The position numbers and the translations under genes were made by a program. This document shows, one piece after another, positions 1 to 63,117 of a stretch of DNA of 64,000 nucleotides. The stretch lies in IMG/VR virus record IMGVR_UViG_3300030419_006277, positions 1 through 64,000 of that record; one strand, 5' to 3'. The notes beneath the pieces were generated by a model. That model did not search any database. It had not been told where the DNA came from and saw only the letters and a program-made list of their open reading frames with translations. This stretch comes from an uncultured virus (IMG/VR IMGVR_UViG_3300030419_006277). Taxonomy: Duplodnaviria > Heunggongvirae > Uroviricota > Caudoviricetes. How positions within the stretch are numbered: the first letter of the stretch is position 1; each line of letters starts with the position of its first letter.

Positions 1-156
1 GTCTGTTTCTTTTGTTGGTTCAGTCACGGTTTTAATGATTGGTTGGGCTTGTACCCTAGGTCTTGAGACTACTGCTACTTTACTTAGGAATTCATCTGCT
101 TTTTTTCTTGGGCTTTTAATTGTTCTAGTAGCCGTAACCATCATCGTTGTGATCAT
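1..156 (-). CDS. Hypothetical protein, runs off the left edge (MITTMMVTATRTIKSPRKKADEFLSKV...)
   Basis: Manual translation; open frame to window edge, co-oriented with neighbours. Confidence 0.45.
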   Translation of the reverse strand, partial: MITTMMVTATRTIKSPRKKADEFLSKVAVVSRPRVQAQPIIKTVTEPTKETD

Positions 157-1154: not shown

Positions 1155-1163
1155 GGGATTAGA

Positions 1164-1210
1164 AGGGGTACCCCTAAAAACGAAAGTAAAATGGGCAAAA
1201 CGAAAGTAAA
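1164..1210. repeat. 12-bp palindrome AGGGGTACCCCT followed by direct repeat AAAACGAAAGTAAA x2 (20-bp period)
   Basis: Palindrome 1164-1175; repeats 1177-1190 and 1197-1210; intergenic. Confidence 0.75.
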
Positions 1211-5830: not shown

Positions 5831-6300
5831 TTGATTTTTGGTCCTGAGAAAACGACAGAAGTTTTAGTGCGTAGGTGTGTTGCTTCTTCATGCCTAATTT
5901 CCTTATTCATGAGGTCTTTTAGATCCTTAGCAGCCCTTTGATGTGCTTCTCTTAGACCTTCAGTCATTACTGAATATTTATATTCTTTAGTTTGTCGAAT
6001 AGAAAACTTCATCTCTTCATCACTACTTTCTATGTAGCAGTCGGAAGGCTTTTCTACCTCTTCTAGTAGAACTAATAGTCTCTGTTTGAAATCAAGTCTG
6101 ATTTCCTCTTTCCGATCTGATAATAGTTTTTCTTGCTCAAGGATTGTTTGATATTCTCCAAAAAGTGCATCTTGTTCTTTAACTGGGTCAATCTCTACAG
6201 GTCTCCCAGTTAAATTTTTGATGAAAGCCTTGGAGTCAGGCTCACGTGCTGGAGAGTGGATGGATGGTGTTTTAGTTGTGCGTGGCATAGTTTTAACCAA
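5827..6300 (-). CDS. Hypothetical coiled-coil protein
   Basis: 157-aa ORF in operon. Confidence 0.65.
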   Translation of the reverse strand: MVKTMPRTTKTPSIHSPAREPDSKAFIKNLTGRPVEIDPVKEQDALFGEYQTILEQEKLLSDRKEEIRLDFKQRLLVLLEEVEKPSDCYIESSDEEMKFSIRQTKEYKYSVMTEGLREAHQRAAKDLKDLMNKEIRHEEATHLRTKTSVVFSGPKIK

Positions 6301-6565
6301 AATCGGAGTGGTAGTGGCGGCGTGTGCGAGCAGGATTAAATCCTGTTTTCTCTTCCACTATATCTGGTGATTCAAGTTGAGGAGAAGAGGGAAGTAACAA
6401 ACCGTAAGAATAAATATTTTCGACGGTTAATTCGATGTCCCATGTCTCACAAATTCTCTTTAGTAAGTCATTGGCATTAGCTCTCTCATAGAGATTTTCA
6501 CTGCTGTTAGCAGCTTCTACAATCTTCTTGAGTTTTGCTTTTAGTTGTGGGGTTGGAGTACTCAT
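6293..6565 (-). CDS. Hypothetical protein
   Basis: ORF starting 20 nt after array B hairpin. Confidence 0.6.
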   Translation of the reverse strand: MSTPTPQLKAKLKKIVEAANSSENLYERANANDLLKRICETWDIELTVENIYSYGLLLPSSPQLESPDIVEEKTGFNPARTRRHYHSDFG

Positions 6566-6584
6566 GATTCAGAAGAATGTTGAA

Positions 6585-6723
6585 GGTAGTTCTTAACCGT
6601 GGAGCTACCAAGCGTGTTGGGGTGAGCCGAAAGGCATAGAATCGGATTGAATTAAGATGCACAGCGACAAGCCAAGAAGAATCGAATTGAATAGGACTTA
6701 CACCAAAGGATGCCTATTCAATT
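6585..6723 (-). ncRNA. Candidate guide RNA B: 5' hairpin, 17 pentamer units (YNY-NN, mostly YTC/YTT), conserved CCCAACACGCTT and 3' hairpin
   Basis: 5-nt periodicity 6612-6696; 3' stem-loop GGTAGCTC-CACGGTTAA-GAACTACC; 11-bp inverted repeat 6685-6695/6713-6723; homologous to 7894-8021. Confidence 0.8.
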
Positions 6724-7231
6724 ACATATCAGGTGGATTTATCTTTGGTACCTCCCCACCATCTCTTTTAAGTTTTAATACCTGCTTCCTTGCCCCATCA
6801 GCAGCCGAGGCTATGAAGGCATGTCTCGCTTGATTGGTTTCAAGTTGAGTTTTCTCATAACCACTTAGATTGTCTTTGTCCACGCGAGTGAACATGTATT
6901 TAGTGTTCTTTCTATGAGATTTAAGACCTGAATAAGCACGTTGATTTAGATATTCAAGTGCCTCTCCGTCTGTTAATACATAGAGGTTACCTTTAATCTG
7001 TTTAATGACTAATGGCTTGTTAATTAATTCTCTAGCTTCTTGAAGCCATTCTCTAACTCTTATGAGTTTGAAATTAACAGCCTGACTCGACTCTGGTGAC
7101 ATGACATCTGCTTTTTTAAATAAGATGTCGAACATTTCTTCGACTTTATGAGAAGGGATAGTTTCACCCTTCTGTAAATCACGCCATGCAATGCCAGCAA
7201 TTTGGATTGGATAATCGTTTGGATTGATCAT
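6722..7231 (-). CDS. Uncharacterised partner protein of the RAMP gene
   Basis: 169 aa; ATGA overlap with the RAMP gene; lies between the two arrays. Confidence 0.75.
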   Translation of the reverse strand: MINPNDYPIQIAGIAWRDLQKGETIPSHKVEEMFDILFKKADVMSPESSQAVNFKLIRVREWLQEARELINKPLVIKQIKGNLYVLTDGEALEYLNQRAYSGLKSHRKNTKYMFTRVDKDNLSGYEKTQLETNQARHAFIASAADGARKQVLKLKRDGGEVPKINPPDM

Positions 7232-7866
7232 GAATCTACCTCCTCAATTTGTGTTACAGCAAAGCGTCCGTGGCTAGGTCTCCAAGTACCTAGACCTTCC
7301 GACTTCCCTGCCATGTTGGCGATCTTCCTCAGTTGACTTGGCTCCATGATTTCATCATCAAGCATTAATTCAAATTTGGCTTTCCACTCTGGGAAGTAAA
7401 CACGATTAACCCATACACCCCTACTGGTGAAGGCAGCGAGCGCAAGTTTAGGTGACTTGGAGTTGATCATTTCGATAGCATCTTTTGGCCCGTCATAATC
7501 AATCTCTGGGTTGTTTGTAACGACTACAGAACGCAGTACATCTTTACCTAATTTCCATTTAGTAGCTGCATTGCGTAAGCAGCGTTGGAAGTTAGCTCCT
7601 GGCAGGTAAGGAGTATCAAAGCCAACAAAGTCGACGCGGTTGTCGCCTTCATCAACTTCACAGACTCCTTCATTCTTCCAATAGCAGGAGTAGAGCCAGT
7701 CAAGGATGCGAACTGCTCTGTGTACATCATCAGTCTTAGCTTTACCCTTCTTATCAGTGAAGTGCTGCTTTTGCTTAGCCGCTTCACCTAGAGGGTCGCT
7801 GTACTGGACGTTGGAGAGAAGCAGACCGCCTCTTCCTTCGAGGTGGACTTCAAAGTTTCTAAACAT
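7228..7866 (-). CDS. Stand-alone RAMP-superfamily (Cas7/Csm3-like; Vipr-like) RNA-binding protein
   Basis: N-terminal strand FEVHLEGRGGLLLSN; PYLPGANFQRCLRNAA resembles the Cas7-group P.IPGSS.KG.LR motif; R.YFPEW; C-terminal G-rich loop GLGTWRPSHGRF. Confidence 0.8.
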   Translation of the reverse strand: MFRNFEVHLEGRGGLLLSNVQYSDPLGEAAKQKQHFTDKKGKAKTDDVHRAVRILDWLYSCYWKNEGVCEVDEGDNRVDFVGFDTPYLPGANFQRCLRNAATKWKLGKDVLRSVVVTNNPEIDYDGPKDAIEMINSKSPKLALAAFTSRGVWVNRVYFPEWKAKFELMLDDEIMEPSQLRKIANMAGKSEGLGTWRPSHGRFAVTQIEEVDS

Positions 7867-7893
7867 GGTGGTGGTTTTGGTGTGGTGTGTGGT

Positions 7894-8021
7894 TCAGTTC
7901 TTAACCGAGGAACTGATAAGCGTGTTGGGCTGAGTTGATCTGAGGTGAATTGAGAAGAGCCGATCCGTATAGAAGCGAAAGGAACTGAGTTGCAGCAGTT
8001 TTAAGTCATACTCAGGACTAT
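7894..8021 (-). ncRNA. Candidate guide RNA A: structured 5' leader, 15 pentamer units (HNC-NN, mostly YTC), conserved CCCAACACGCTT and 3' hairpin
   Basis: 5-nt periodicity 7920-7994 with C at triplet position 3 in all 15 units; 3' stem-loop TCAGTTC-CTCGGTTAA-GAACTGA. Confidence 0.8.
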
Positions 8022-8032
8022 TTTTGGTGTAG

Positions 8033-8290
8033 TCATGGCACTAATCCCTTTTTATCGAGATAATTAAGTAAGACTTGAGCAGCCTCTCCTGGTGGCCCAG
8101 GTTCTGTAGCTTCTGCCATAATTGCAAAGATGATCTTAGGATCTTTTCTAACTTGTTCTTCAACTATGGGGAAAGATATTTTGAAAATATTGTCATAGAT
8201 AGCGCGAGCATTCTCCATGTCCCCACGTTTAACACATGCCTCAGCTTCTTTGCGGCATACATCTAGGAAGTCAGCGTTAAGATCTTCCAT
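8033..8290 (-). CDS. Hypothetical protein
   Basis: ORF with TAATG coupling. Confidence 0.6.
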   Translation of the reverse strand: MEDLNADFLDVCRKEAEACVKRGDMENARAIYDNIFKISFPIVEEQVRKDPKIIFAIMAEATEPGPPGEAAQVLLNYLDKKGLVP

Positions 8291-8490
8291 TAGAACGTAA
8301 GATAAGGGTCATTTTTTGATAAAATCTCCCCATCCGAGACTTTTAACTGTCTAACTAAATAGGATTGTCCAAAGGATAGGGTGTCAACTACTTTGATTTG
8401 CCTATTCAGTTGATCTTCATTGAGTGTCTTGAGCTGTTCTAGTAGCTCTCCCCAGGTTTTTGTGTCGGTTGTAGTCATAGTTTCATCCAT
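8290..8490 (-). CDS. Hypothetical protein (TWGELLEQLKTLNEDQLN motif; start may be 8478)
   Basis: T(W/Y).ELL..L..L..EQL pattern familiar from small phage proteins. Confidence 0.6.
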   Translation of the reverse strand: MDETMTTTDTKTWGELLEQLKTLNEDQLNRQIKVVDTLSFGQSYLVRQLKVSDGEILSKNDPYLTF

Positions 8491-8684
8491 GGCATTACCC
8501 TTGGTTTCCCGTAGGCATGATGTTTAGCAGGGTTCTCTAGTGCGTCAGTTAATTCTTTACATAGAGAGACAAGAATAGTTCTTGCTTCATCATCATCAGG
8601 TAAGTCAGCCTTACCAATTAAATCTCTCAAACATGTGATTGTTTTAGTCCCTTTAAGTTCAATAACTAAATTTTCAAGATCCAT
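8475..8684 (-). CDS. Hypothetical protein
   Basis: ORF in operon. Confidence 0.55.
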   Translation of the reverse strand: MDLENLVIELKGTKTITCLRDLIGKADLPDDDEARTILVSLCKELTDALENPAKHHAYGKPRVMPWMKL

Positions 8685-8867
8685 CTATACCCCCTCCCCC
8701 TCTACTTTTTCTGATACTTCTATATCACATTTGTAGGTAGGATCGGTTTCATCCCACAGCTCCGAATACTTCCTCTGCTCATTGGCTATTCTTCTAGCTT
8801 CTTCAGCATCAGGAGCCATTATCTCAAAGCGATTGCTTTGTATAACATTTACTATGTAGGTAGTCAT
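8685..8867 (-). CDS. Hypothetical protein
   Basis: ORF in operon; ends in GEGV. Confidence 0.6.
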   Translation of the reverse strand: MTTYIVNVIQSNRFEIMAPDAEEARRIANEQRKYSELWDETDPTYKCDIEVSEKVEGEGV

Positions 8868-9118
8868 ACCCCCTCCCCTTTGCTATTAATTAATAGGTCT
8901 CTAATTCTCTTTATCAGCCGCACTGTTAATATATTTATCGGGAAGCCTGAATCTTTGTCAAACCTTAAACGTAGTTCTAAGCCTTGCAGTAATTCAATTA
9001 ATTCTGCATCTGTGTGGCCCAATACCTTAATCTCTTCTTGATTCATTGGTCTGGTTGTGCGGTGTACTTTCTTCCTACCGTGGGTTTTGATAGGTGGCAA
9101 GGTTGGTTGTTGAGTCAT
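8864..9118 (-). CDS. Hypothetical protein
   Basis: ORF in operon; ends in GEGV. Confidence 0.55.
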   Translation of the reverse strand: MTQQPTLPPIKTHGRKKVHRTTRPMNQEEIKVLGHTDAELIELLQGLELRLRFDKDSGFPINILTVRLIKRIRDLLINSKGEGV

Positions 9119-9282
9119 AGGTGAAAGCTCCCTTCGTTTAGTTTTCTTGCTGCCCTGCTGGTAGCTACCGTGGCAGCATCGGCTTTTGACATGCGCTGTG
9201 CTAACTGCTCCAACTGGAGACGGGCGGACTCTTTAGCGGTCTCAGGGCTAGTACTTAGCCATTCATGCTTTGACTGCTTCAT
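9115..9282 (-). CDS. 55-aa hypothetical protein (MKQSKHEWLSTSPE...)
   Basis: Manual translation; ATGA overlaps on both sides. Confidence 0.55.
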   Translation of the reverse strand: MKQSKHEWLSTSPETAKESARLQLEQLAQRMSKADAATVATSRAARKLNEGSFHL

Positions 9283-9404
9283 TGCTCCCCCTCGAATAGC
9301 TCCATAGCTAGGGCCACTTGCTCATCATCTGTGAGCGACGGGTGCTGCTCTTTTACAAGCTCTAGAAGATCCTCTAACCGTTCGGAATTTGTTTCGTAGG
9401 ACAT
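9279..9404 (-). CDS. 41-aa hypothetical protein (MSYETNSERLEDLLE...)
   Basis: Manual translation; ATGA coupling. Confidence 0.55.
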   Translation of the reverse strand: MSYETNSERLEDLLELVKEQHPSLTDDEQVALAMELFEGEQ

Positions 9405-9488
9405 GGCGGTGTTGTGTACAAATTAAAGTTAAGGTGCTTTGAAACACTGTCCATAGTGTGTTCACAATGTGTTATATACCCCCTCCCC

Positions 9489-9824
9489 CTAGTCGTAGCT
9501 GTCATATAGGGCCGCTTTACCATCCCATGGCTCGATCAATCCAAAATATTTAATAAAGGCATACTCTTGCCCGTTATCCTTCCAAGTCTTACGGGCTTTC
9601 CTGAATACTGAGCCTCTAGGGATATCAACAGGAATTTTTAGACCGGCCTGCCCATAGCCATCGTGTTCCAGTAATTGCGAGTGGACCTCTTGAAACCAGA
9701 CTGAGGCTTTAGAGAGTCGCACAACCTTATAGAAGTGCGGCAGGTTAACGGTTGACCCTGCGTCGCAATAGCAGATCTGGCCAATTTTGAAGGTTTTAGA
9801 CTTGGTTTGTGTGTTGGTGGTCAT
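9489..9824 (-). CDS. Hypothetical early protein
   Basis: FKIGQI.Y.....T....FYKVVR pattern seen in phage early proteins. Confidence 0.65.
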   Translation of the reverse strand: MTTNTQTKSKTFKIGQICYCDAGSTVNLPHFYKVVRLSKASVWFQEVHSQLLEHDGYGQAGLKIPVDIPRGSVFRKARKTWKDNGQEYAFIKYFGLIEPWDGKAALYDSYD

Positions 9825-9864
9825 GGTTAGTTAGTGCGGAATGATTAAGAAATAATTAAGAGAA

Positions 9865-10002
9865 CTATTCCTCGAAATTGTTCTCTAGGTCGTATTTATA
9901 TTGCTCATACCCTCCTGGGTATTCTTCATTGATTCGCTCAATTAGGGCTAGTTCTTCTTGTTCTCTTTCGTAGTTGTTTAGCATCATGTTGTGATAGTCC
10001 AT
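9865..10002 (-). CDS. 45-aa acidic hypothetical protein (MDYHNMMLNNYERE...)
   Basis: Manual translation; starts 3 nt after the upstream stop. Confidence 0.5.
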   Translation of the reverse strand: MDYHNMMLNNYEREQEELALIERINEEYPGGYEQYKYDLENNFEE

Positions 10003-10005
10003 GTT

Positions 10006-10713
10006 TTAAACCTCCATTAGTACACGGTTTGCAGTTGCCCCATGCGCGTTTATAACAACATCAGCCGCAGAGCCTGAGCAAAGGCCACAAGTGGCGCAAT
10101 TGGTCTTTTGACCCTTCTCAATGCTTGCCATGCAATGCACAGAGTTGGTGGGATCTTCTACGCTTTCATGTTTGACTAGAAAGGTTTTCCAATCGTGGAA
10201 ATTAGCTTCTAGTTTGTCTATTACATCTTCACAGGATGCTTGCACAATGCCTCTAAATTCCTGCGCGAATGCTTCCCGCCATTGATGCGTATAGCCTGTA
10301 TGTGTTCTTGCATGATTTAACATCTTGCGCCATATCTCAACATTAAACATTGCGGGATCCCCTGCGCTGCCCATCCTTAGGGCGTGGCCGTCGAATAGAT
10401 GCCAGTCGTTGCCTATATGTGGATAGTTGCCGCGCTTGTAGCAATTCCAGACACTTAAAGGCGCATGATACCAACGCACATAGCAAGAACCCTTGCGGCT
10501 TCCATGGTGTGGGCAGTTGCCACAAACTGATTTACCGCGTTCATCCTTGAATGCTTCGTTTGGTTTGACGTCAGTTCGAAGGATCCAGCTCTGAAGCATT
10601 GAACCAGTTTTGTCATTAGCTGATACCTTGTCAAAGCCTGTAACTATTAGGACAATTGGCGCCCCATCGTATGGGCTGGTGCCTTCTGCAATGATTCTGC
10701 CGTTCGTGTTCAT
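10006..10713 (-). CDS. Cys-rich phage protein, GP88-like / possible Fe-S (radical-SAM-related) fold
   Basis: NDKTG; CGNCP......CY; LRMGSAGDP; TGYTHQW; C..S...CATCGLC; AHG motifs; start set by leader motif. Confidence 0.65.
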   Translation of the reverse strand: MNTNGRIIAEGTSPYDGAPIVLIVTGFDKVSANDKTGSMLQSWILRTDVKPNEAFKDERGKSVCGNCPHHGSRKGSCYVRWYHAPLSVWNCYKRGNYPHIGNDWHLFDGHALRMGSAGDPAMFNVEIWRKMLNHARTHTGYTHQWREAFAQEFRGIVQASCEDVIDKLEANFHDWKTFLVKHESVEDPTNSVHCMASIEKGQKTNCATCGLCSGSAADVVINAHGATANRVLMEV

Positions 10714-10746
10714 TGGTTTAATTGGTGATGTGTGCAAGTGATGGGG

Positions 10747-10932
10747 TTAAAGGATGCGGGGCCTCTTAGTTTCTAGTTGATCTTTTAAAGATTCATCATC
10801 TTGGCTCATCTCCCATAAATCAAGTTGATCTAGTTCGTTTACTGTCTCTTTAATTGTTGCCGTAGCTGGGAATAGTTGGTCAAAAAGAGAATTGACGAAT
10901 TCGTGAGACTCTTTAGAAAGTTTCTTTGTCAT
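10747..10932 (-). CDS. Hypothetical protein (start at MTKKLSK)
   Basis: Leader ACCAATTAAACCAATG. Confidence 0.55.
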   Translation of the reverse strand: MTKKLSKESHEFVNSLFDQLFPATATIKETVNELDQLDLWEMSQDDESLKDQLETKRPRIL

Positions 10933-10961
10933 TGGTTTAATTGGTTGAGAGTGTGGGCAAT

Positions 10962-10990
10962 AAAAAACAAGCTCTATTAAAAGAACTTGC
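10962..10990 (-). terminator. Rho-independent terminator after the first leftward gene
   Basis: GCAAGTTCT-TTTAAT-AGAGCTTGT followed by TTTTT. Confidence 0.55.
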
Positions 10991-11228
10991 AAAGGAAAAA
11001 ATAATTGTCTTTGTCATGTCCTGCGTGGACTATCTCAGCCTGGCCTAGGCTCCATTCTCTAATTAAATTATTAGCAGCATTCAAAGCCTCTTCTAATGGT
11101 TCTAAAGTTCCGCCACTTGCTGCGGTTGACTTTCTGAATGTCACATCATGGCATTTGTGCTCAGCTTTCCACTTGTTAGCGGTTCTTTTGACTGTAATGA
11201 CTGGCAAGGTTGTTTGAATCTTGGTCAT
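10977..11228 (-). CDS. Hypothetical protein, first gene of the leftward early region
   Basis: ORF just downstream of a sigma70-like promoter. Confidence 0.65.
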   Translation of the reverse strand: MTKIQTTLPVITVKRTANKWKAEHKCHDVTFRKSTAASGGTLEPLEEALNAANNLIREWSLGQAEIVHAGHDKDNYFFLCKFF

Positions 11229-11252
11229 GGGTGCGGTGCGCTGTATGTCTTA

Positions 11253-11281
11253 AATATATAAAGACGGGCTTATATAAGCAA
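11253..11281 (-). promoter_or_regulatory. Sigma70-like early promoter
   Basis: TTGCTT-17 nt-TATATT, about 25 nt upstream of ATG 11228. Confidence 0.6.
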
Positions 11282-11716
11282 TGTATGTAGTTAATAAGTT
11301 TACACTCAGTCACAAAAGCTAGTTATTTAGGCTGAATTAATTTCCACAGTCTTTGCCCCTGCCGTTCTAGTGCGTCTCTATCTCTTGGCGGGCGGTGGAG
11401 AAGGGACACAGAAAAACCTCTTAAAGCTGTGCATTTAGTGGGAAAAAAGACAAGAAAAAGACATATTTTGACATAAAACAGATAAAACTAGAAAAATATT
11501 GATTTTAAAGCGCGTGCGCGTGGGCTGTGACTCATCCGCGACAGTTCAAACCATCAAAAAACGGCCAAACGTGGCGCAAACCTTGCATGATGCGGGCTGT
11601 TTGGGTCAATCGGGCCGGTTGTCGGAGCTGTTTCGGTCGGTATGTCAAGACAAAAGGGCAAATTAGTTGCAAAGCTTCACATAAAGTCGGCGCCAGTTCG
11701 CCAAACCGTCGGTAGT

Positions 11717-11730
11717 AGAACATATGTACT
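11717..11730 (-). promoter_or_regulatory. Cyanobacterial LexA-box match AGTACATATGTTCT
   Basis: Exact match to RGTACNNNDGTWCB in the divergent non-coding region. Confidence 0.45.
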
Positions 11731-11825
11731 ATCTTTTCAGCGAAAAAAGAGCATAAAACGGGCCAAAAGTCAAATGTTAAGCACTTTGTAAAGTGTTAAG
11801 CGTAATATTTCTTTTTTTTCCTCCC

Positions 11826-11843
11826 AATGTAAAGTTTTGTAAC
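11826..11843 (-). promoter_or_regulatory. HLR1 (RpaB-binding) type direct repeat GTTACAAA-AC-TTTACATT
   Basis: Exact match to (G/T)TTACA(T/A)(T/A)-N2-(G/T)TTACA(T/A)(T/A). Confidence 0.55.
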
Positions 11844-11968
11844 CCTCCGCCTGATAGCTCTTCGAATTTTTTCCCAAAAATGGGGTTTTTAAAGGCTCGG
11901 TAGGGTAAATCGTCTCAGCAAATGTACAGGAACTAAAATTAAATTTATAGCCTTAAAAATTAATAGAA

Positions 11969-13375
11969 GTGCCGTTAGGAATCCCAATTACGGAGAAGGA
12001 AATACTCGCACGACAGATGGGTGTCTCTCCACAAGAACTTGAATATATGGGAAGGTGGGAACCTCGCCGTAATGCAGCTCAAAAAGCAGCAAAATTCCTT
12101 AAAGATGCAGCAATTCTTGCCGGAACTGGAGCATTAGCTTATCAAGGTTATAAAGCATTACAAGATGGCAGAAATCAACCCGGTTCTGACACTACAGGGG
12201 GCGTTAGTGGAGGGACAACTCCAACTCCAAGTCCAAGTCCCGGCGACGGTGGGGGTTCACCTTCTGTAGATAGTGCAAAACCAAGTGGAGATCAGGCTGT
12301 TAGACAACAATTATTGAGTAAAGCAACAGTAAATAGAGAAAAAGGTGGTCCTTTAGCACGTAGAACAAATAGAGGTTCAGCTATAGCGTCAACGCCGTCA
12401 AGAGCTGTAACTGCTCCGGCTGATTCGTCTTCTGCACTTTCCGCTGCTGATGATGAGTATGTAAATTACGGTTCTGTTGGAGTACCTATTGCAACTAGGA
12501 ATAAGAATCGTCCAGGATTAACTGAAGATCTTTATACCGGATTGAGGGCTGAAAATCCTTTAACTACTGGGGTTGTAGCAACTGCTGTAACTAAAGATGG
12601 CCGACCAATTCGAGCATTAGGCGGTGGCGGTGGTGCCTTAACATTCCCAGCTCAATATCAGACTCCTTTTCAAAGAATGGCATATGGAGGTCCTTTTGGG
12701 CTATCTACAAAAGCGGCGATGACTCCACGATTCTGGGAGATGGGTGGAGGCGCACCTCCTGGATGGGCTTCCGGTCTTGGTGGAACTTTAGGGCATGCTG
12801 CGGAAGGTGTTATTGGTTTAGTTCAGCCTGAATTAATTCCAGTTTTAGGTGCCGGTGAGTTTATTGGTAATGTTGTAAGTCATATTCCTCAAATTGCAGG
12901 CGCAGGGGCAAGTATGGGAGTACGCGCCCTTGAACAAGGTGTAATTGGTGGATTAACTGCTTCAGAAAGGGCACTGACTGATGCTTTAAATGTAGCTTCT
13001 ATTGCGGTACCTACAGCAAAAGCTGCTGGTCAACTTACAAGACGTGCCGGTGATCGAGTATTTGATTTAGGTCAATCTACCCGACGAATTCATGATCAAT
13101 ACATAGTTCCTCCAGTTCGTGGGGCCGCAAGACAACTTAGGCAGTGGGATACAGAAGGCAGATATTTATATGATCAGGTTGCTCCTCAGTTGGCTGCTAG
13201 AGCTGCTGCTGATTATGAGAGAGGAATCATTAAGCCTGTTGTTGGTTCTATGAGAAATGCACAAAAGGCTGCTTTGAATGAGGTAGTTCAGAAATTCCTT
13301 CCAGATGGTTCAAGACATCCAGATTTACCTCCGGGTGAAGATGATGCTTTTAGAGATCCGTGGGGTAATTACTAA
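11969..13375 (+). CDS. Gly/Ala-rich putative internal virion/ejection protein
   Basis: 468 aa; low complexity; hydrophobic N-terminal helix; first rightward gene. Confidence 0.65.
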   Translation: MPLGIPITEKEILARQMGVSPQELEYMGRWEPRRNAAQKAAKFLKDAAILAGTGALAYQGYKALQDGRNQPGSDTTGGVSGGTTPTPSPSPGDGGGSPSVDSAKPSGDQAVRQQLLSKATVNREKGGPLARRTNRGSAIASTPSRAVTAPADSSSALSAADDEYVNYGSVGVPIATRNKNRPGLTEDLYTGLRAENPLTTGVVATAVTKDGRPIRALGGGGGALTFPAQYQTPFQRMAYGGPFGLSTKAAMTPRFWEMGGGAPPGWASGLGGTLGHAAEGVIGLVQPELIPVLGAGEFIGNVVSHIPQIAGAGASMGVRALEQGVIGGLTASERALTDALNVASIAVPTAKAAGQLTRRAGDRVFDLGQSTRRIHDQYIVPPVRGAARQLRQWDTEGRYLYDQVAPQLAARAAADYERGIIKPVVGSMRNAQKAALNEVVQKFLPDGSRHPDLPPGEDDAFRDPWGNY

Positions 13376-47659: not shown

Positions 47660-48463
47660 TTAGATTAGACTCCAACTTCTCCACCACTTGGTTATTACAT
47701 ACTTATTATTTTGCACTGGTGGCAATGCTTCATGCATTGTTTTATAGTTTGGGACTCCGTTACGATATAAGTTATTCCAGGCTAACAACATACCTTCTTT
47801 CGGTTTTACTTTTAACTTAAGGTGTTTGAAATAGGTTTCACCACCTTCCTCTACGTCGTTTAAGTAGATCATACTTGTCCAAGTTCTTTGTCCCATCCAT
47901 TCGCAATAAGTTTTACATTCTTTAATTGCTAAAGGTGGGAAAAAATCATAATGTTCTTTGTAAAATTCTCCAGGTAAATACTTTTGCGCTTGCATAACTT
48001 CTCCGAGAAATGGGCGCAAGTCCAGTATGTCTGCAAGTTTTCTGTCTACATCTAAGTAAAAAGGATTGTCAAAATAGTGCAAGTCAGCGGTTGAGCTGGT
48101 TCGATAATCTGAGACATGGCACGTATCATTAGTATCTGAAACTGTAGATTTTCTTAGATTCTTATCTATAATCTCTCGTAATTTTTCACATTCTTCTTTA
48201 GTTAGAAAATTATCATATGAGTAAAGCTGAGTAAAAGGATAATATATTCTTTTCGCATCAGGATTTTTTGTTATTGCATTGTTATAAAACTCTTTATATT
48301 TGATTCTTTTTGGCGAAGGTTTAAAAGCGCATAATTCTATTAATTGATTAATATCACTATCTTCAAGTTTATAAAGTTCTTTGAATGTTCTAATTGTTTG
48401 TGTTTTACTTACGCCGCCTACTGCGGCTCTCATGAATTCTAAAGCAACATTACTATCTATCAT
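47660..48463 (-). CDS. Prolyl 4-hydroxylase-like 2OG-Fe(II) oxygenase
   Basis: RTSS; Y.PG.FYKEHYD; QRTWT.MIYLNDVEEGGET.F; HEALP...KY..TKW. Confidence 0.9.
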   Translation of the reverse strand: MIDSNVALEFMRAAVGGVSKTQTIRTFKELYKLEDSDINQLIELCAFKPSPKRIKYKEFYNNAITKNPDAKRIYYPFTQLYSYDNFLTKEECEKLREIIDKNLRKSTVSDTNDTCHVSDYRTSSTADLHYFDNPFYLDVDRKLADILDLRPFLGEVMQAQKYLPGEFYKEHYDFFPPLAIKECKTYCEWMGQRTWTSMIYLNDVEEGGETYFKHLKLKVKPKEGMLLAWNNLYRNGVPNYKTMHEALPPVQNNKYVITKWWRSWSLI

Positions 48464-61361: not shown

Positions 61362-62006
61362 ATGAAGGACGGGTTAACTTATGCCTTATTCCCTACTCCA
61401 TTACATCACAACAATATTGGGTATGACTATGAGCTTAAACTTTCTGATTTATGCCCTTGTTATGATTCTACTATTGGGCCAGAATCCCATGACAAGTGTA
61501 ATGGTTTAATTACGAGAGATCAAAATTATCTACTTAAACAGGAGAATCTTCTTTTAAGGCAAAAATTAGAAGAAGTTATAGAGAAATATTTACATGAGCA
61601 TTTAAAATTAAATTCTAAAATAGGTATAAGACATCAATGTAGCTGGGGGTTACTTCATAAAAGAGGTCACTATTCTCCAAAACATTACCATCGCAATTCT
61701 TGGCTATCTGGTATTTATTATTTTCAGGTGAATTCTGATAGTGGCGATTTCGAAGTTACGGCAAGACCACCTTATGGATGGACTTGTAATTCGATAGCTC
61801 CTTTTGACGCTATCGATACGTATAATTCGTTAAATAGTCGAAGTACTACATTTAAACCAAAAAGAGGGGATGTATATTTGTTCCCTTCTCATTTAGAGCA
61901 TCATAGTTATATAAACAATAGTGACATTGATCGCGTATGTGTGAGTTTCAACTATACTTTAACTGGTTCTTGGGGATCTATGGGTGATCGAATCACTCTA
62001 AATTAA
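61362..62006 (+). CDS. Putative 2OG-Fe(II) oxygenase (TIGR02466-like)
   Basis: LFPTP; H.H.NSWLSGIYY; P..GD.YLFPS.L.H; R.CVSFN. Confidence 0.85.
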   Translation: MKDGLTYALFPTPLHHNNIGYDYELKLSDLCPCYDSTIGPESHDKCNGLITRDQNYLLKQENLLLRQKLEEVIEKYLHEHLKLNSKIGIRHQCSWGLLHKRGHYSPKHYHRNSWLSGIYYFQVNSDSGDFEVTARPPYGWTCNSIAPFDAIDTYNSLNSRSTTFKPKRGDVYLFPSHLEHHSYINNSDIDRVCVSFNYTLTGSWGSMGDRITLN

Positions 62007-62635
62007 TGGAACTTTTACCTTTATTTGCCTCTAATGTATTCAAAGTATGTATAGAAGAGGATACCGATTCTCTTCTTAATGAAGAGTCTTTTAGTAATTC
62101 TGTTGAACAAGATAGACAGGAAGGTCTTTACAGTGTTGGGTGCTTAGACAAAGCAAATCAAAATATAAGAGTTTTAGACCGCCATCCTGAAGTAGCACGG
62201 GTATTGCTAGATAAATGGATGATTATTGCAAGAGAGGTTCTTAATTATAATTGTAAATTTGTTCTTACTACGTCTTGGATAACTAAAAATTATAAAGGTA
62301 TGAGTTCTCAGGAACATCATCATAAGAATAGTTTTTATTCTGGGATTTACTATTTTGATGATTATGATGAAAATGTAGGAAAGCTTATATTCAGCAGTCC
62401 TTTAGCAACCTTTCCAGATTTTTTAATAGAACCAACTGAATACCATATAAAGAACTGCCCGGCTTGGATACATATTCCAAAAGCAAAAGAACTGGTGCTT
62501 TTTCCTAGTTATCTGAATCATCAAGTACTACCTCATGGTAGTGATAAGCCAAGGAGATCTTTAGCTTTTAATATCGTTCCTACAGGAATTTATGGGATAG
62601 GTGATTCTAAGTTGGATACTAAATGGCTCTCATGA
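62006..62635 (+). CDS. Putative 2OG-Fe(II) oxygenase (TIGR02466-like)
   Basis: H.HKNSFYSGIYY; LVLFPSYL.H.V; R.SLAFN. Confidence 0.85.
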   Translation: MELLPLFASNVFKVCIEEDTDSLLNEESFSNSVEQDRQEGLYSVGCLDKANQNIRVLDRHPEVARVLLDKWMIIAREVLNYNCKFVLTTSWITKNYKGMSSQEHHHKNSFYSGIYYFDDYDENVGKLIFSSPLATFPDFLIEPTEYHIKNCPAWIHIPKAKELVLFPSYLNHQVLPHGSDKPRRSLAFNIVPTGIYGIGDSKLDTKWLS

Positions 62636-63117
62636 AAATAATCCCTGACTTTTTACCTGAAGACTATTTTGCAAGCATAGAAAAGGATCTTGTATGGAAT
62701 CACCAATTTCCATACTATTTATTAGATAAATGCAATTCATCTCAAACAGATGATAGTCAGTGGATGATGAGTCATACAGGATATATAGAAGATACTGCTA
62801 GAACTGATCTATATACTGGAATGTTACGAGCTATACACATGCTTCCAGATTTTAGAACCTTAATTAGATTAAAAGCTAATTTTTATCCACAAACTACTGA
62901 GATGGTTGAACATGCTCGTCATGTTGATTTCGATTTCTCTCATCATGGAGCAATTCTTTCTTTAAATACTTGCGATGGATTCACAAGATTAGAAGATGGT
63001 ACAAAAGTAGAGAGTGTAAGAAATCGATTATTAATTTTTGATGGTTCGACTATGCATAATTCTTCTACTACTACCGATGCTAAAGGCAGGTTTAATATAA
63101 ATATTAATTATTTATGA
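62623..63117 (+). CDS. Putative 2OG-Fe(II) oxygenase
   Basis: LIRLKAN; HVD; NTCDGFT; NRLLIFDG...H; RFNININY. Confidence 0.85.
   Translation: MALMKIIPDFLPEDYFASIEKDLVWNHQFPYYLLDKCNSSQTDDSQWMMSHTGYIEDTARTDLYTGMLRAIHMLPDFRTLIRLKANFYPQTTEMVEHARHVDFDFSHHGAILSLNTCDGFTRLEDGTKVESVRNRLLIFDGSTMHNSSTTTDAKGRFNININYL

Follow-up and report, generated by a model that had tools for sequence, protein, structure and literature searches.

VIPR systems, which were first reported in 2026 and have been studied in coliphage and Pseudomonas systems, consist of a phage-encoded RAMP protein (Vipr), an accessory gene (vap) and guide RNAs known as vrRNAs, as set out in the text of the first preprint (bioRxiv 10.64898/2026.04.26.720920). 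According to the same text, vrRNAs are about 100 nt long, are encoded once upstream and several times downstream of vipr-vap, and are built from 9–16 YNNGG pentamer repeats, after which comes a structured 3' tail of about 40 nt that does not vary; DNA is bound by way of the NN dinucleotides, with a skip of 1 nt, and rival phages and satellites are thereby silenced (10.64898/2026.04.26.720920). The text of the structural study describes one Vipr protomer per repeat, with H17 and the G-loop residues D177, W178 and R179 reading GGY, as well as a terminal pseudoknot that caps the RNA 3' end in cryo-EM (10.64898/2026.04.26.720927). The shared consensus tail is taken, in the text of a later preprint, as making the RNA competent for Vipr assembly, and solo vrRNAs are stated to exist (10.64898/2026.10.15.759431). 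The text of a fourth describes 21 clusters of divergent VIPR arrays with non-canonical units, naming GAC/NN, CAC/NN, WGT/NN and TGH/NN (10.64898/2026.10.21.760802), and the Methods of the first add NNNGG, YNNNG and NNNNG (10.64898/2026.04.26.720920). Cyanophages and marine phages go unmentioned in the text of these preprints (720920, 720927, 759431, 760802).

A comparable layout is found in coliphage wV8, in which non-coding regions on either side of gp096 and a 146-aa gene contain (NNGGT)n tracts with a hairpin at the end of each. In the record of this phage, the tract and hairpin regions are annotated as direct repeat DR_4. As it stands in the 2009 GenBank record, DR_4 (L127 3750-3807 and 5143-5200) covers the end of a pentamer tract plus the hairpin, i.e., the vrRNA tail region. 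In the gp096 protein, H17, C173, D177, W178 and R179 have the same numbering as the residues singled out in SUSP1 Vipr, and this agreement, together with the locus layout, indirectly suggests that gp096 is the counterpart of SUSP1 Vipr.

In this report, we focus on a box and hairpin that occur twice in a marine cyanophage genome, and which are very probably the invariable 3' tails of two minus-strand vrRNAs placed around a RAMP gene. Sequence and predicted fold support this reading through the pentamer periodicity, the conservation and covariation of the tail, the neighbouring RAMP gene, the linkage seen in viromes and the likeness to the wV8 layout.

The cyanophage locus, its tails and its pentamer tracts

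The window, that is, the whole stretch of 64,000 nt that was analysed, makes up the first 64 kb of a phage genome of 87,026 bp that consists of a single contig. Since this genome encodes terminase, head and tail proteins, DNA polymerase I and primase, as well as psbA (photosystem II D1), Hsp20 and several 2OG-Fe(II) oxygenases, it is regarded as that of a cyanophage. Its auxiliary set of three 2OG-Fe(II) oxygenase-like genes, two endonuclease V-like genes and psbA is typical for a cyanophage. The contig ends overlap, window 1-55 and genome 86972-87026 carrying identical sequence, which points to a circular or terminally redundant assembly. A 740-nt non-coding region at window 11229-11968, probably the main early/late control region, separates divergent minus- and plus-strand gene blocks, and a 910-aa ORF without a PHROG match lies among the replication genes (genome 72874-75606; L120:9874-12606, plus strand). 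In a short intergenic stretch at window 1155-1210 (minus), TTTACTTTCGTTTT is duplicated in tandem, with a GGGGTACCCC palindrome after it. A DNA search of window 6200-8300 against phage isolates returned no match, and there was likewise no Rfam match, either for window 6000-12000 (E ≤ 5) or for 13 related loci (E ≤ 1).

All genes between 0.2 and 11.2 kb lie on the minus strand, and the tails and tracts must therefore be read on that strand. The features of the locus, and the auxiliary genes, are as follows.

6553..8023: whole cassette of 1.47 kb (tract and tail A, vipr, vap, tract and tail B), missing from variant contigs
7992..8032, minus: leader, from the stop codon of the upstream 85-aa gene to tract A
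7927..7991, minus: repeat tract of the putative vrRNA-A, 13 pentamers N-N-Y-K-C (AACTC AGTTC CTTTC ... AACTC AGCCC)
7894-7929 (A) and 6585-6621 (B), minus: the two copies of box plus hairpin
7894..7926, minus: putative 3' tail of vrRNA-A, box AACA-CGCTT-A and hairpin A; covariance model R1 41.5 bits, E 1e-7
7916-7894, minus: hairpin A, TCAGTTC / CTCGGTTAA / GAACTGA, perfect 7-bp stem
7228..7866, minus: vipr, 212 aa (P212), phrog_4652, no Pfam match, predicted Cas7/Csm3-like RAMP fold
6722..7231, minus: candidate vap (accessory gene), 169 aa (P169), adjoining vipr throughout the clade
6687..6721, minus: hairpin HPa, directly after the vap stop codon, stem TTGAATAGG/CCTATTCAA, loop CATCCTTTGGTGTAAGT
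6619..6693, minus: repeat tract of the putative vrRNA-B, 15 pentamers N-N-Y-K-C
6585..6618, minus: putative 3' tail of vrRNA-B, box AACA-CGCTT and hairpin B; R1 48.4 bits, E 3e-9
6609-6585, minus: hairpin B, GGTAGCTC / CACGGTTAA / GAACTACC, 7/8 pairs
Window 47660-48463 and 61362-63117, and genome 80164-81255: auxiliary genes

An earlier sequence-only reading had held that both arrays end in CCCAACACGCTT and a hairpin with the loop C(T/A)CGGTTAA, and this description was confirmed. CCCAACACGCTT, followed by a 7-8 bp hairpin with that loop, occurs exactly twice in the 87-kb genome, both times on the minus strand, at 7929-7918 and 6621-6610, and these are its sole copies genome-wide even with one mismatch allowed; the loop/stem word CGGTTAAGAAC is likewise present exactly twice, at the two CCCAACACGCTT sites. 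The search for further guides that had been proposed was run with the covariance model R1, which matches only the two tail sites in the phage genome at E < 0.1. The same reading had both stems pairing, which is right for the seven pairs of hairpin A but overlooks, in hairpin B, the C.A mismatch that forms the sixth of eight pairs on the gene-sense strand. Hairpin A is part of the minimum-energy fold of the sense strand (-7.7 kcal/mol; 7 of 200 shuffles fold equally well), and hairpin B is absent from it because of this mismatch. Over 34 nt, the two tails are identical at 26 positions, the differences being confined to the outer stem and one loop base, and two stem pairs have changed on both sides (U-A to G-C, C-G to U-A). 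Each tail directly follows the last repeat, as the structured tail of about 40 nt does in a VIPR guide.

The pentamer arrays, also claimed earlier, are real. Upstream of each box, and in register with it, both tracts keep a strict 5-nt period. Position 5 of tract A is C in 13/13 pentamers, position 4 is T in 11/13 and position 3 is a pyrimidine in 11/13; among the 15 pentamers of tract B, position 5 is C in 12 and T in 3, position 4 is T in 10, G in 3 and C in 2, and position 3 is a pyrimidine throughout. Positions 1-2 are mixed in both, and the identity between the tracts at positions 1 to 5 is 3, 2, 4, 9 and 10 of 13. In stride-5 scans, GA on the plus strand (TC on the minus) reaches 11/12 only at 7902-8007 in the whole genome, a value to be set against block shuffles of which 0/200 exceed 8, and the Y.Y pattern reaches 12/12 at 6609-6701, in tract B, which 9/200 shuffles also attain somewhere. 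With 13 and 15 units, the tracts fall within the 9-16 tandem pentamers of VIPR guides, with a constant trinucleotide and a variable dinucleotide. The canonical GGY/NN (YNNGG) repeat is not present, the constant part being Y-K-C on the gene-sense strand and G-M-R on the other; since the text of the VIPR preprints accepts 'a related consensus' and non-canonical units, the missing GGY/NN is compatible with membership.

Read in this manner, the locus would encode a vrRNA-A of about 98 nt (7991-7894, minus) upstream of vipr and a vrRNA-B of about 109 nt (6693-6585, minus) downstream of vap, strand and ends in both cases being deduced from the sequence. Among public sequencing runs, none of the RNA runs was listed as containing this locus. 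Each would comprise 13-15 pentamers N-N-Y-K-C, then AACA-CGCUU, and then a 7-8 bp hairpin with the loop C(U/A)CGGUUAA. The leader at 7992..8032 holds no recognisable promoter. The 3' arm of HPa overlaps the first pentamer of tract B, and hairpins of this type with a conserved 14-17-nt loop (GGCATCC....GGTGTAAGTCC, or GGCAACGTCAATAAGTCC) are also found in L125, L126, L124 and L015, after the vap stop codon and, in multi-unit arrays, ahead of each tract. They have no Rfam match, and might serve as processing sites or belong to the following guide as its 5' element. A search for targets, using the NN code with 0-3-nt skips in the phage genome and the loci compared with it, gave best non-self matches of 20-22 of 28-32, within the shuffled-order maxima of 20-24.

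The tail element in ocean viromes

A strict pattern derived from the window had no match in IMG/VR, and a looser consensus was therefore used, which gave 117 matches in 108 loci. The stem-pair counts of these matches are bimodal: 81 of the 117 form 7-8 of 8 pairs (63 of them perfectly), and 36 form at most 6. A T before CGCTT, which the pattern does not demand, is present in 81/81 paired and 6/36 poorly paired matches. The two window copies had been put forward as direct evidence of covariation, for which two sequences are a weak basis; the covariation itself persists in the larger alignment, consisting of 38 distinct paired cores and the two window copies (n = 40), where 95.6% of stem cells pair, within a set biased by its choice of cores with at least 7 pairs. 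At four of the eight pairs, both partners have changed (38 cells), the stem score is reached by 0/500 shuffles, and slid controls pair in 14-48% of cells. A weak loop-to-box pseudoknot of at most 4 bp (AAUCG with CGAUU) may be considered as a possibility only: three of its pairs are invariant in the 40 sequences, the fourth is formed in 33 and the fifth in 17, and a compensatory change (U to C with A to G) is seen only in the window.

Across the family, 13 G.U pairs compare with 2 A.C pairs on the gene-sense strand, which favours this strand as that of the RNA. These counts bear on the improbable idea that the element works at the DNA level and on the plus strand (the template), whether as a palindromic promoter or operator, as origin iterons, or as a single-stranded hairpin like that of N4 early promoters. 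In its favour, the plus strand folds both hairpins, and more stably than the minus strand, the mismatch of hairpin B becoming G.T, and the cassette sits among replication-type genes in other phages. Besides the wobble counts, however, the outer stem bases differ between copies in one genome, unlike those of a palindrome read by protein, and a scan for sigma-70-like promoters found none on the minus strand (3 sites in all versus 2.9 expected). Moreover, the homologous published system makes RNAs from such tracts, according to the text of its description (10.64898/2026.04.26.720920).

In relatives, the tail element is found in tandem non-coding arrays, in which it recurs 2-9 times with no gene after each copy, in units of 110-150 nt, each with a tract, the box and hairpin and, in many cases, another hairpin; in a genome of 36 kb, about 9 such units extend over 1.2 kb. 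In 30 loci or more, the element overlaps the stop codon of a convergent gene. These arrangements speak against a 5'-UTR element acting in cis (a translational operator, for instance, a hairpin that stabilises mRNA, or a nut/put-like antitermination site with CGCTT as the boxA-like and the hairpin as the boxB-like part), a reading to which we assign a small probability, slightly above that of the DNA-level element. In its favour, the element appears to resemble lambda nut, having a single-stranded box that is conserved and, after it, a hairpin whose loop is constant and whose stem varies; in addition, both window copies end 20-27 nt upstream of the start codon of a co-oriented gene. The constant partner of the element is the upstream vipr-vap pair rather than any downstream gene. 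Given the distance to the start codons, the tails may have an added cis role on the downstream mRNA.

The same arrays bear on a factor-independent terminator, or a 3'-end stabiliser without a specific protein partner, which we consider about as improbable as the DNA-level element. The sequence-only reading had dismissed a terminator because neither hairpin has a U-tract, and in the window this is so, no T-run following hairpin A or B. In the family, a T-rich 15-mer follows the hairpin in 45 of the 81 copies, typically the last of an array, and in relatives the hairpin may thus act as a terminator at array ends. Internal copies lead into another hairpin instead of a T-run, and the 9-nt loop and upstream box are conserved far beyond the needs of a terminator. 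Several further candidates, which rested on consensus motifs, were dropped in view of the RAMP fold and the tandem arrays without downstream genes. They comprised sigma-70, ECF or sigma-54 promoters; N4-type hairpin promoters; lambda nut or HK022 put antitermination; and Pho or NtcA boxes, RNase III sites, sponge RNAs and a replication origin.

The reading as guide RNA tails is strengthened by linkage to the RAMP gene, the co-occurrence that had been proposed as a check: Vipr homologs are present in 13 of 15 carrier contigs and in 0 of 10 control contigs. In 5/5 extended loci, homologs of both vipr and vap adjoin the arrays, and a profile of the RAMP protein matches in 8/10 further carrier contigs, always 1-2.5 kb from the tail element, compared with 0/10 control contigs, in which the pattern match has an unpaired stem. 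The other two further carriers, L026 and L076 (G011 and G015; 18.2 kb and 6.1 kb), have a paired tail hairpin and no Vipr homolog on the contig; they are fragments, 46% and 14% complete, with only about 4 pentamers upstream of the tail hairpin in L026, and they may hold solo or decayed guides or simply have been cut. One Vipr homolog (G008:C1:2856-3383, on the contig of L072) matches in two pieces, residues 1-51 and 89-210, and its gene may be broken or interrupted. Taking 67 units of the family together, the information content is 0.03 and 0.05 bits at positions 1-2 and 0.20-0.30 bits at positions 3-5, so that the family-wide periodic signal is modest, partly through register slips. GC-rich relatives within the clade read NN-YGC/YGT, which may come under the TGH/NN unit named in the text of the published work.

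Vipr, the candidate accessory gene and the presence or absence of the cassette

The vipr-vap pair is flanked by intergenic regions of 166 nt and 156 nt, the only other long gaps in the minus-strand block being 9283-9488, 9825-10005 and the divergent region, and the locus thus has the minimal layout of vipr and vap between long, putatively RNA-encoding flanks. The model of P212 shows a Cas7/Csm3-like RAMP fold, with the single RRM core, glycine-rich loop and thumb predicted for a small RAMP of the Vipr kind. In sequence, P212 is homologous to wV8 gp096 (BLASTP E 6e-20, 27% identity); S18 and T194 align with the coliphage H17 and D177, while W195 and R196 of the G-loop are kept. A tblastn search places the RAMP family in 129 records of phage isolates; 77 of these are Escherichia phages (Felix-O1 type), and Gordonia phage Trine and Mycobacterium phage LittleE are also among them. 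The 169-aa gene was found next to vipr in L122-L126 (tblastn). The model of its product, with a pLDDT of 77, gave only weak winged-helix-like rows and no Foldseek match at E ≤ 1e-3, and the protein has no similarity to wV8 gp095. For both proteins (212 aa and 169 aa), Protein Atlas returned only viral hypothetical clusters.

A RAMP fold in the neighbouring protein is also what a degenerate CRISPR-Cas locus would provide, the box and hairpin being then a true CRISPR-type repeat with Cas6-like cutting. We regard this as the least probable of the alternatives, since there is no repeat-spacer array, the hairpin occurring just twice, 1.3 kb apart, with pentamer repeats where spacers should be. The cas adaptation and effector genes of a CRISPR-Cas locus are not found with it either, as no other cas gene was detected among 17 (PHROG) and 16 (Pfam) neighbouring proteins, and the repeat has no Rfam match. 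The sequence-only reading of a structured RNA handle that ends pentamer-tract guides with a RAMP partner is supported in each of its sequence-level parts, given the fold next door, the 5-nt periodicity, the covariation and the linkage.

Contigs from four other marine runs were compared with window 6500-8100. One contig of run X5 joins 6552 to 8024, leaving out 1471 nt, the junction being 9 nt past the stop codon of the 85-aa gene and 13 nt into the 90-aa gene, with 4 possible join positions. In agreement with this, a loose end in run X2 at 8024 continues into sequence like 6520-6550. Thus, the whole cassette is absent from some co-occurring near relatives, a presence/absence polymorphism which suggests active turnover among competing cyanophages. 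An 884-nt contig of X2, from a near relative, has 42 differences in all, with at least 10 substitutions in tract A, clustered in 7928-7954. Of the 10 substitutions listed, 5 affect NN positions; of the remainder, 4 preserve the Y-K-Y class or bring the pentamer closer to it. The tail contains none of the differences listed.

Proposed mode of action and relation to known systems

By analogy with SUSP1, one Vipr protomer would bind each pentamer, clamping the constant trinucleotide and exposing the NN dinucleotide, and the resulting ribonucleoprotein would bind the dsDNA of a rival phage or satellite by gapped (1-nt-skip) pairing, leading to silencing. Protein would recognise the tail by its conserved box and loop; of the stem, only pairing would be required, which is the reason proposed for its covariation. 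The tail may act in processing, loading or capping, in a manner analogous to the repeat handle of a CRISPR RNA.

The layout, the repeat number, the deduced RNA lengths and the position of the tail all fit VIPR, and the locus is most likely a marine copy of it with an unusual motif. From the studied type it differs in its constant motif, its tail and its vap family. A further step is somewhat more doubtful than not, although well worth considering, namely that the marine cyanophage clade is a distinct and undescribed VIPR type, with the scaffold code Y-K-C, the replacements H17->S and D177->T, a new tail hairpin and a new accessory family. This type would abound in ocean viromes, its arrays would hold as many as about 9 guides, and its gain and loss would be that of a whole cassette of 1.47 kb. 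If this is true, Vipr proteins can be retuned to a different constant motif, and RNA-guided phage-versus-phage silencing reaches the virosphere of marine picocyanobacteria. Since the constant motif and the tail differ from those of the studied type, the locus offers a natural test of which RNA parts are read by the protein and of how the tail acts. It is also a clean minimal example, with one guide on each side, a strict register and a cyanophage that carries a photosynthesis gene, and the family alignment supplies a covariance model with which ocean viromes can be searched for guides, possible solo guides among them.

Class 1 CRISPR ribonucleoproteins have a Cas7 backbone and a repeat-derived handle or hairpin held by Cas5/Cas6. 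The cyanophage system differs from them in its 5-nt rather than 6-nt register, in the placing of specificity in dinucleotides, in having neither spacers, adaptation genes nor a separate Cas5/Cas6, and in being encoded by a virus. With VIPR of the SUSP1/Felix-O1 type, as described in the text of the preprints, it shares a small single-RRM RAMP (P212 being homologous through wV8 gp096), a two-gene cassette between long non-coding regions, tracts of 9-16 pentamers in which three positions are constrained and two are free, a structured, unvarying tail of about 35-40 nt placed immediately 3' to the last repeat, and one guide upstream and one or more downstream of the genes. Set against the same descriptions, its constant trinucleotide is Y-K-C (mostly YUC) and not GGY, and S18/T194 stand in place of the G1-contacting H17/D177 of the coliphage Vipr. 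The tail is CGCUU and a single hairpin with, at most, a 4-bp loop-to-box pseudoknot, whereas that of the SUSP1 type is described as pseudoknotted; the accessory protein of 169 aa is unrelated to wV8 gp095, and the host is a cyanobacterium, unlike that of coliphage VIPR. The divergent VIPR arrays are closer in one respect, since in their published text they too combine a 5-nt period beside a Vipr-like fold with a constant motif other than GGY; YUC/NN is not among the example units named in that text, to which this comparison applies.
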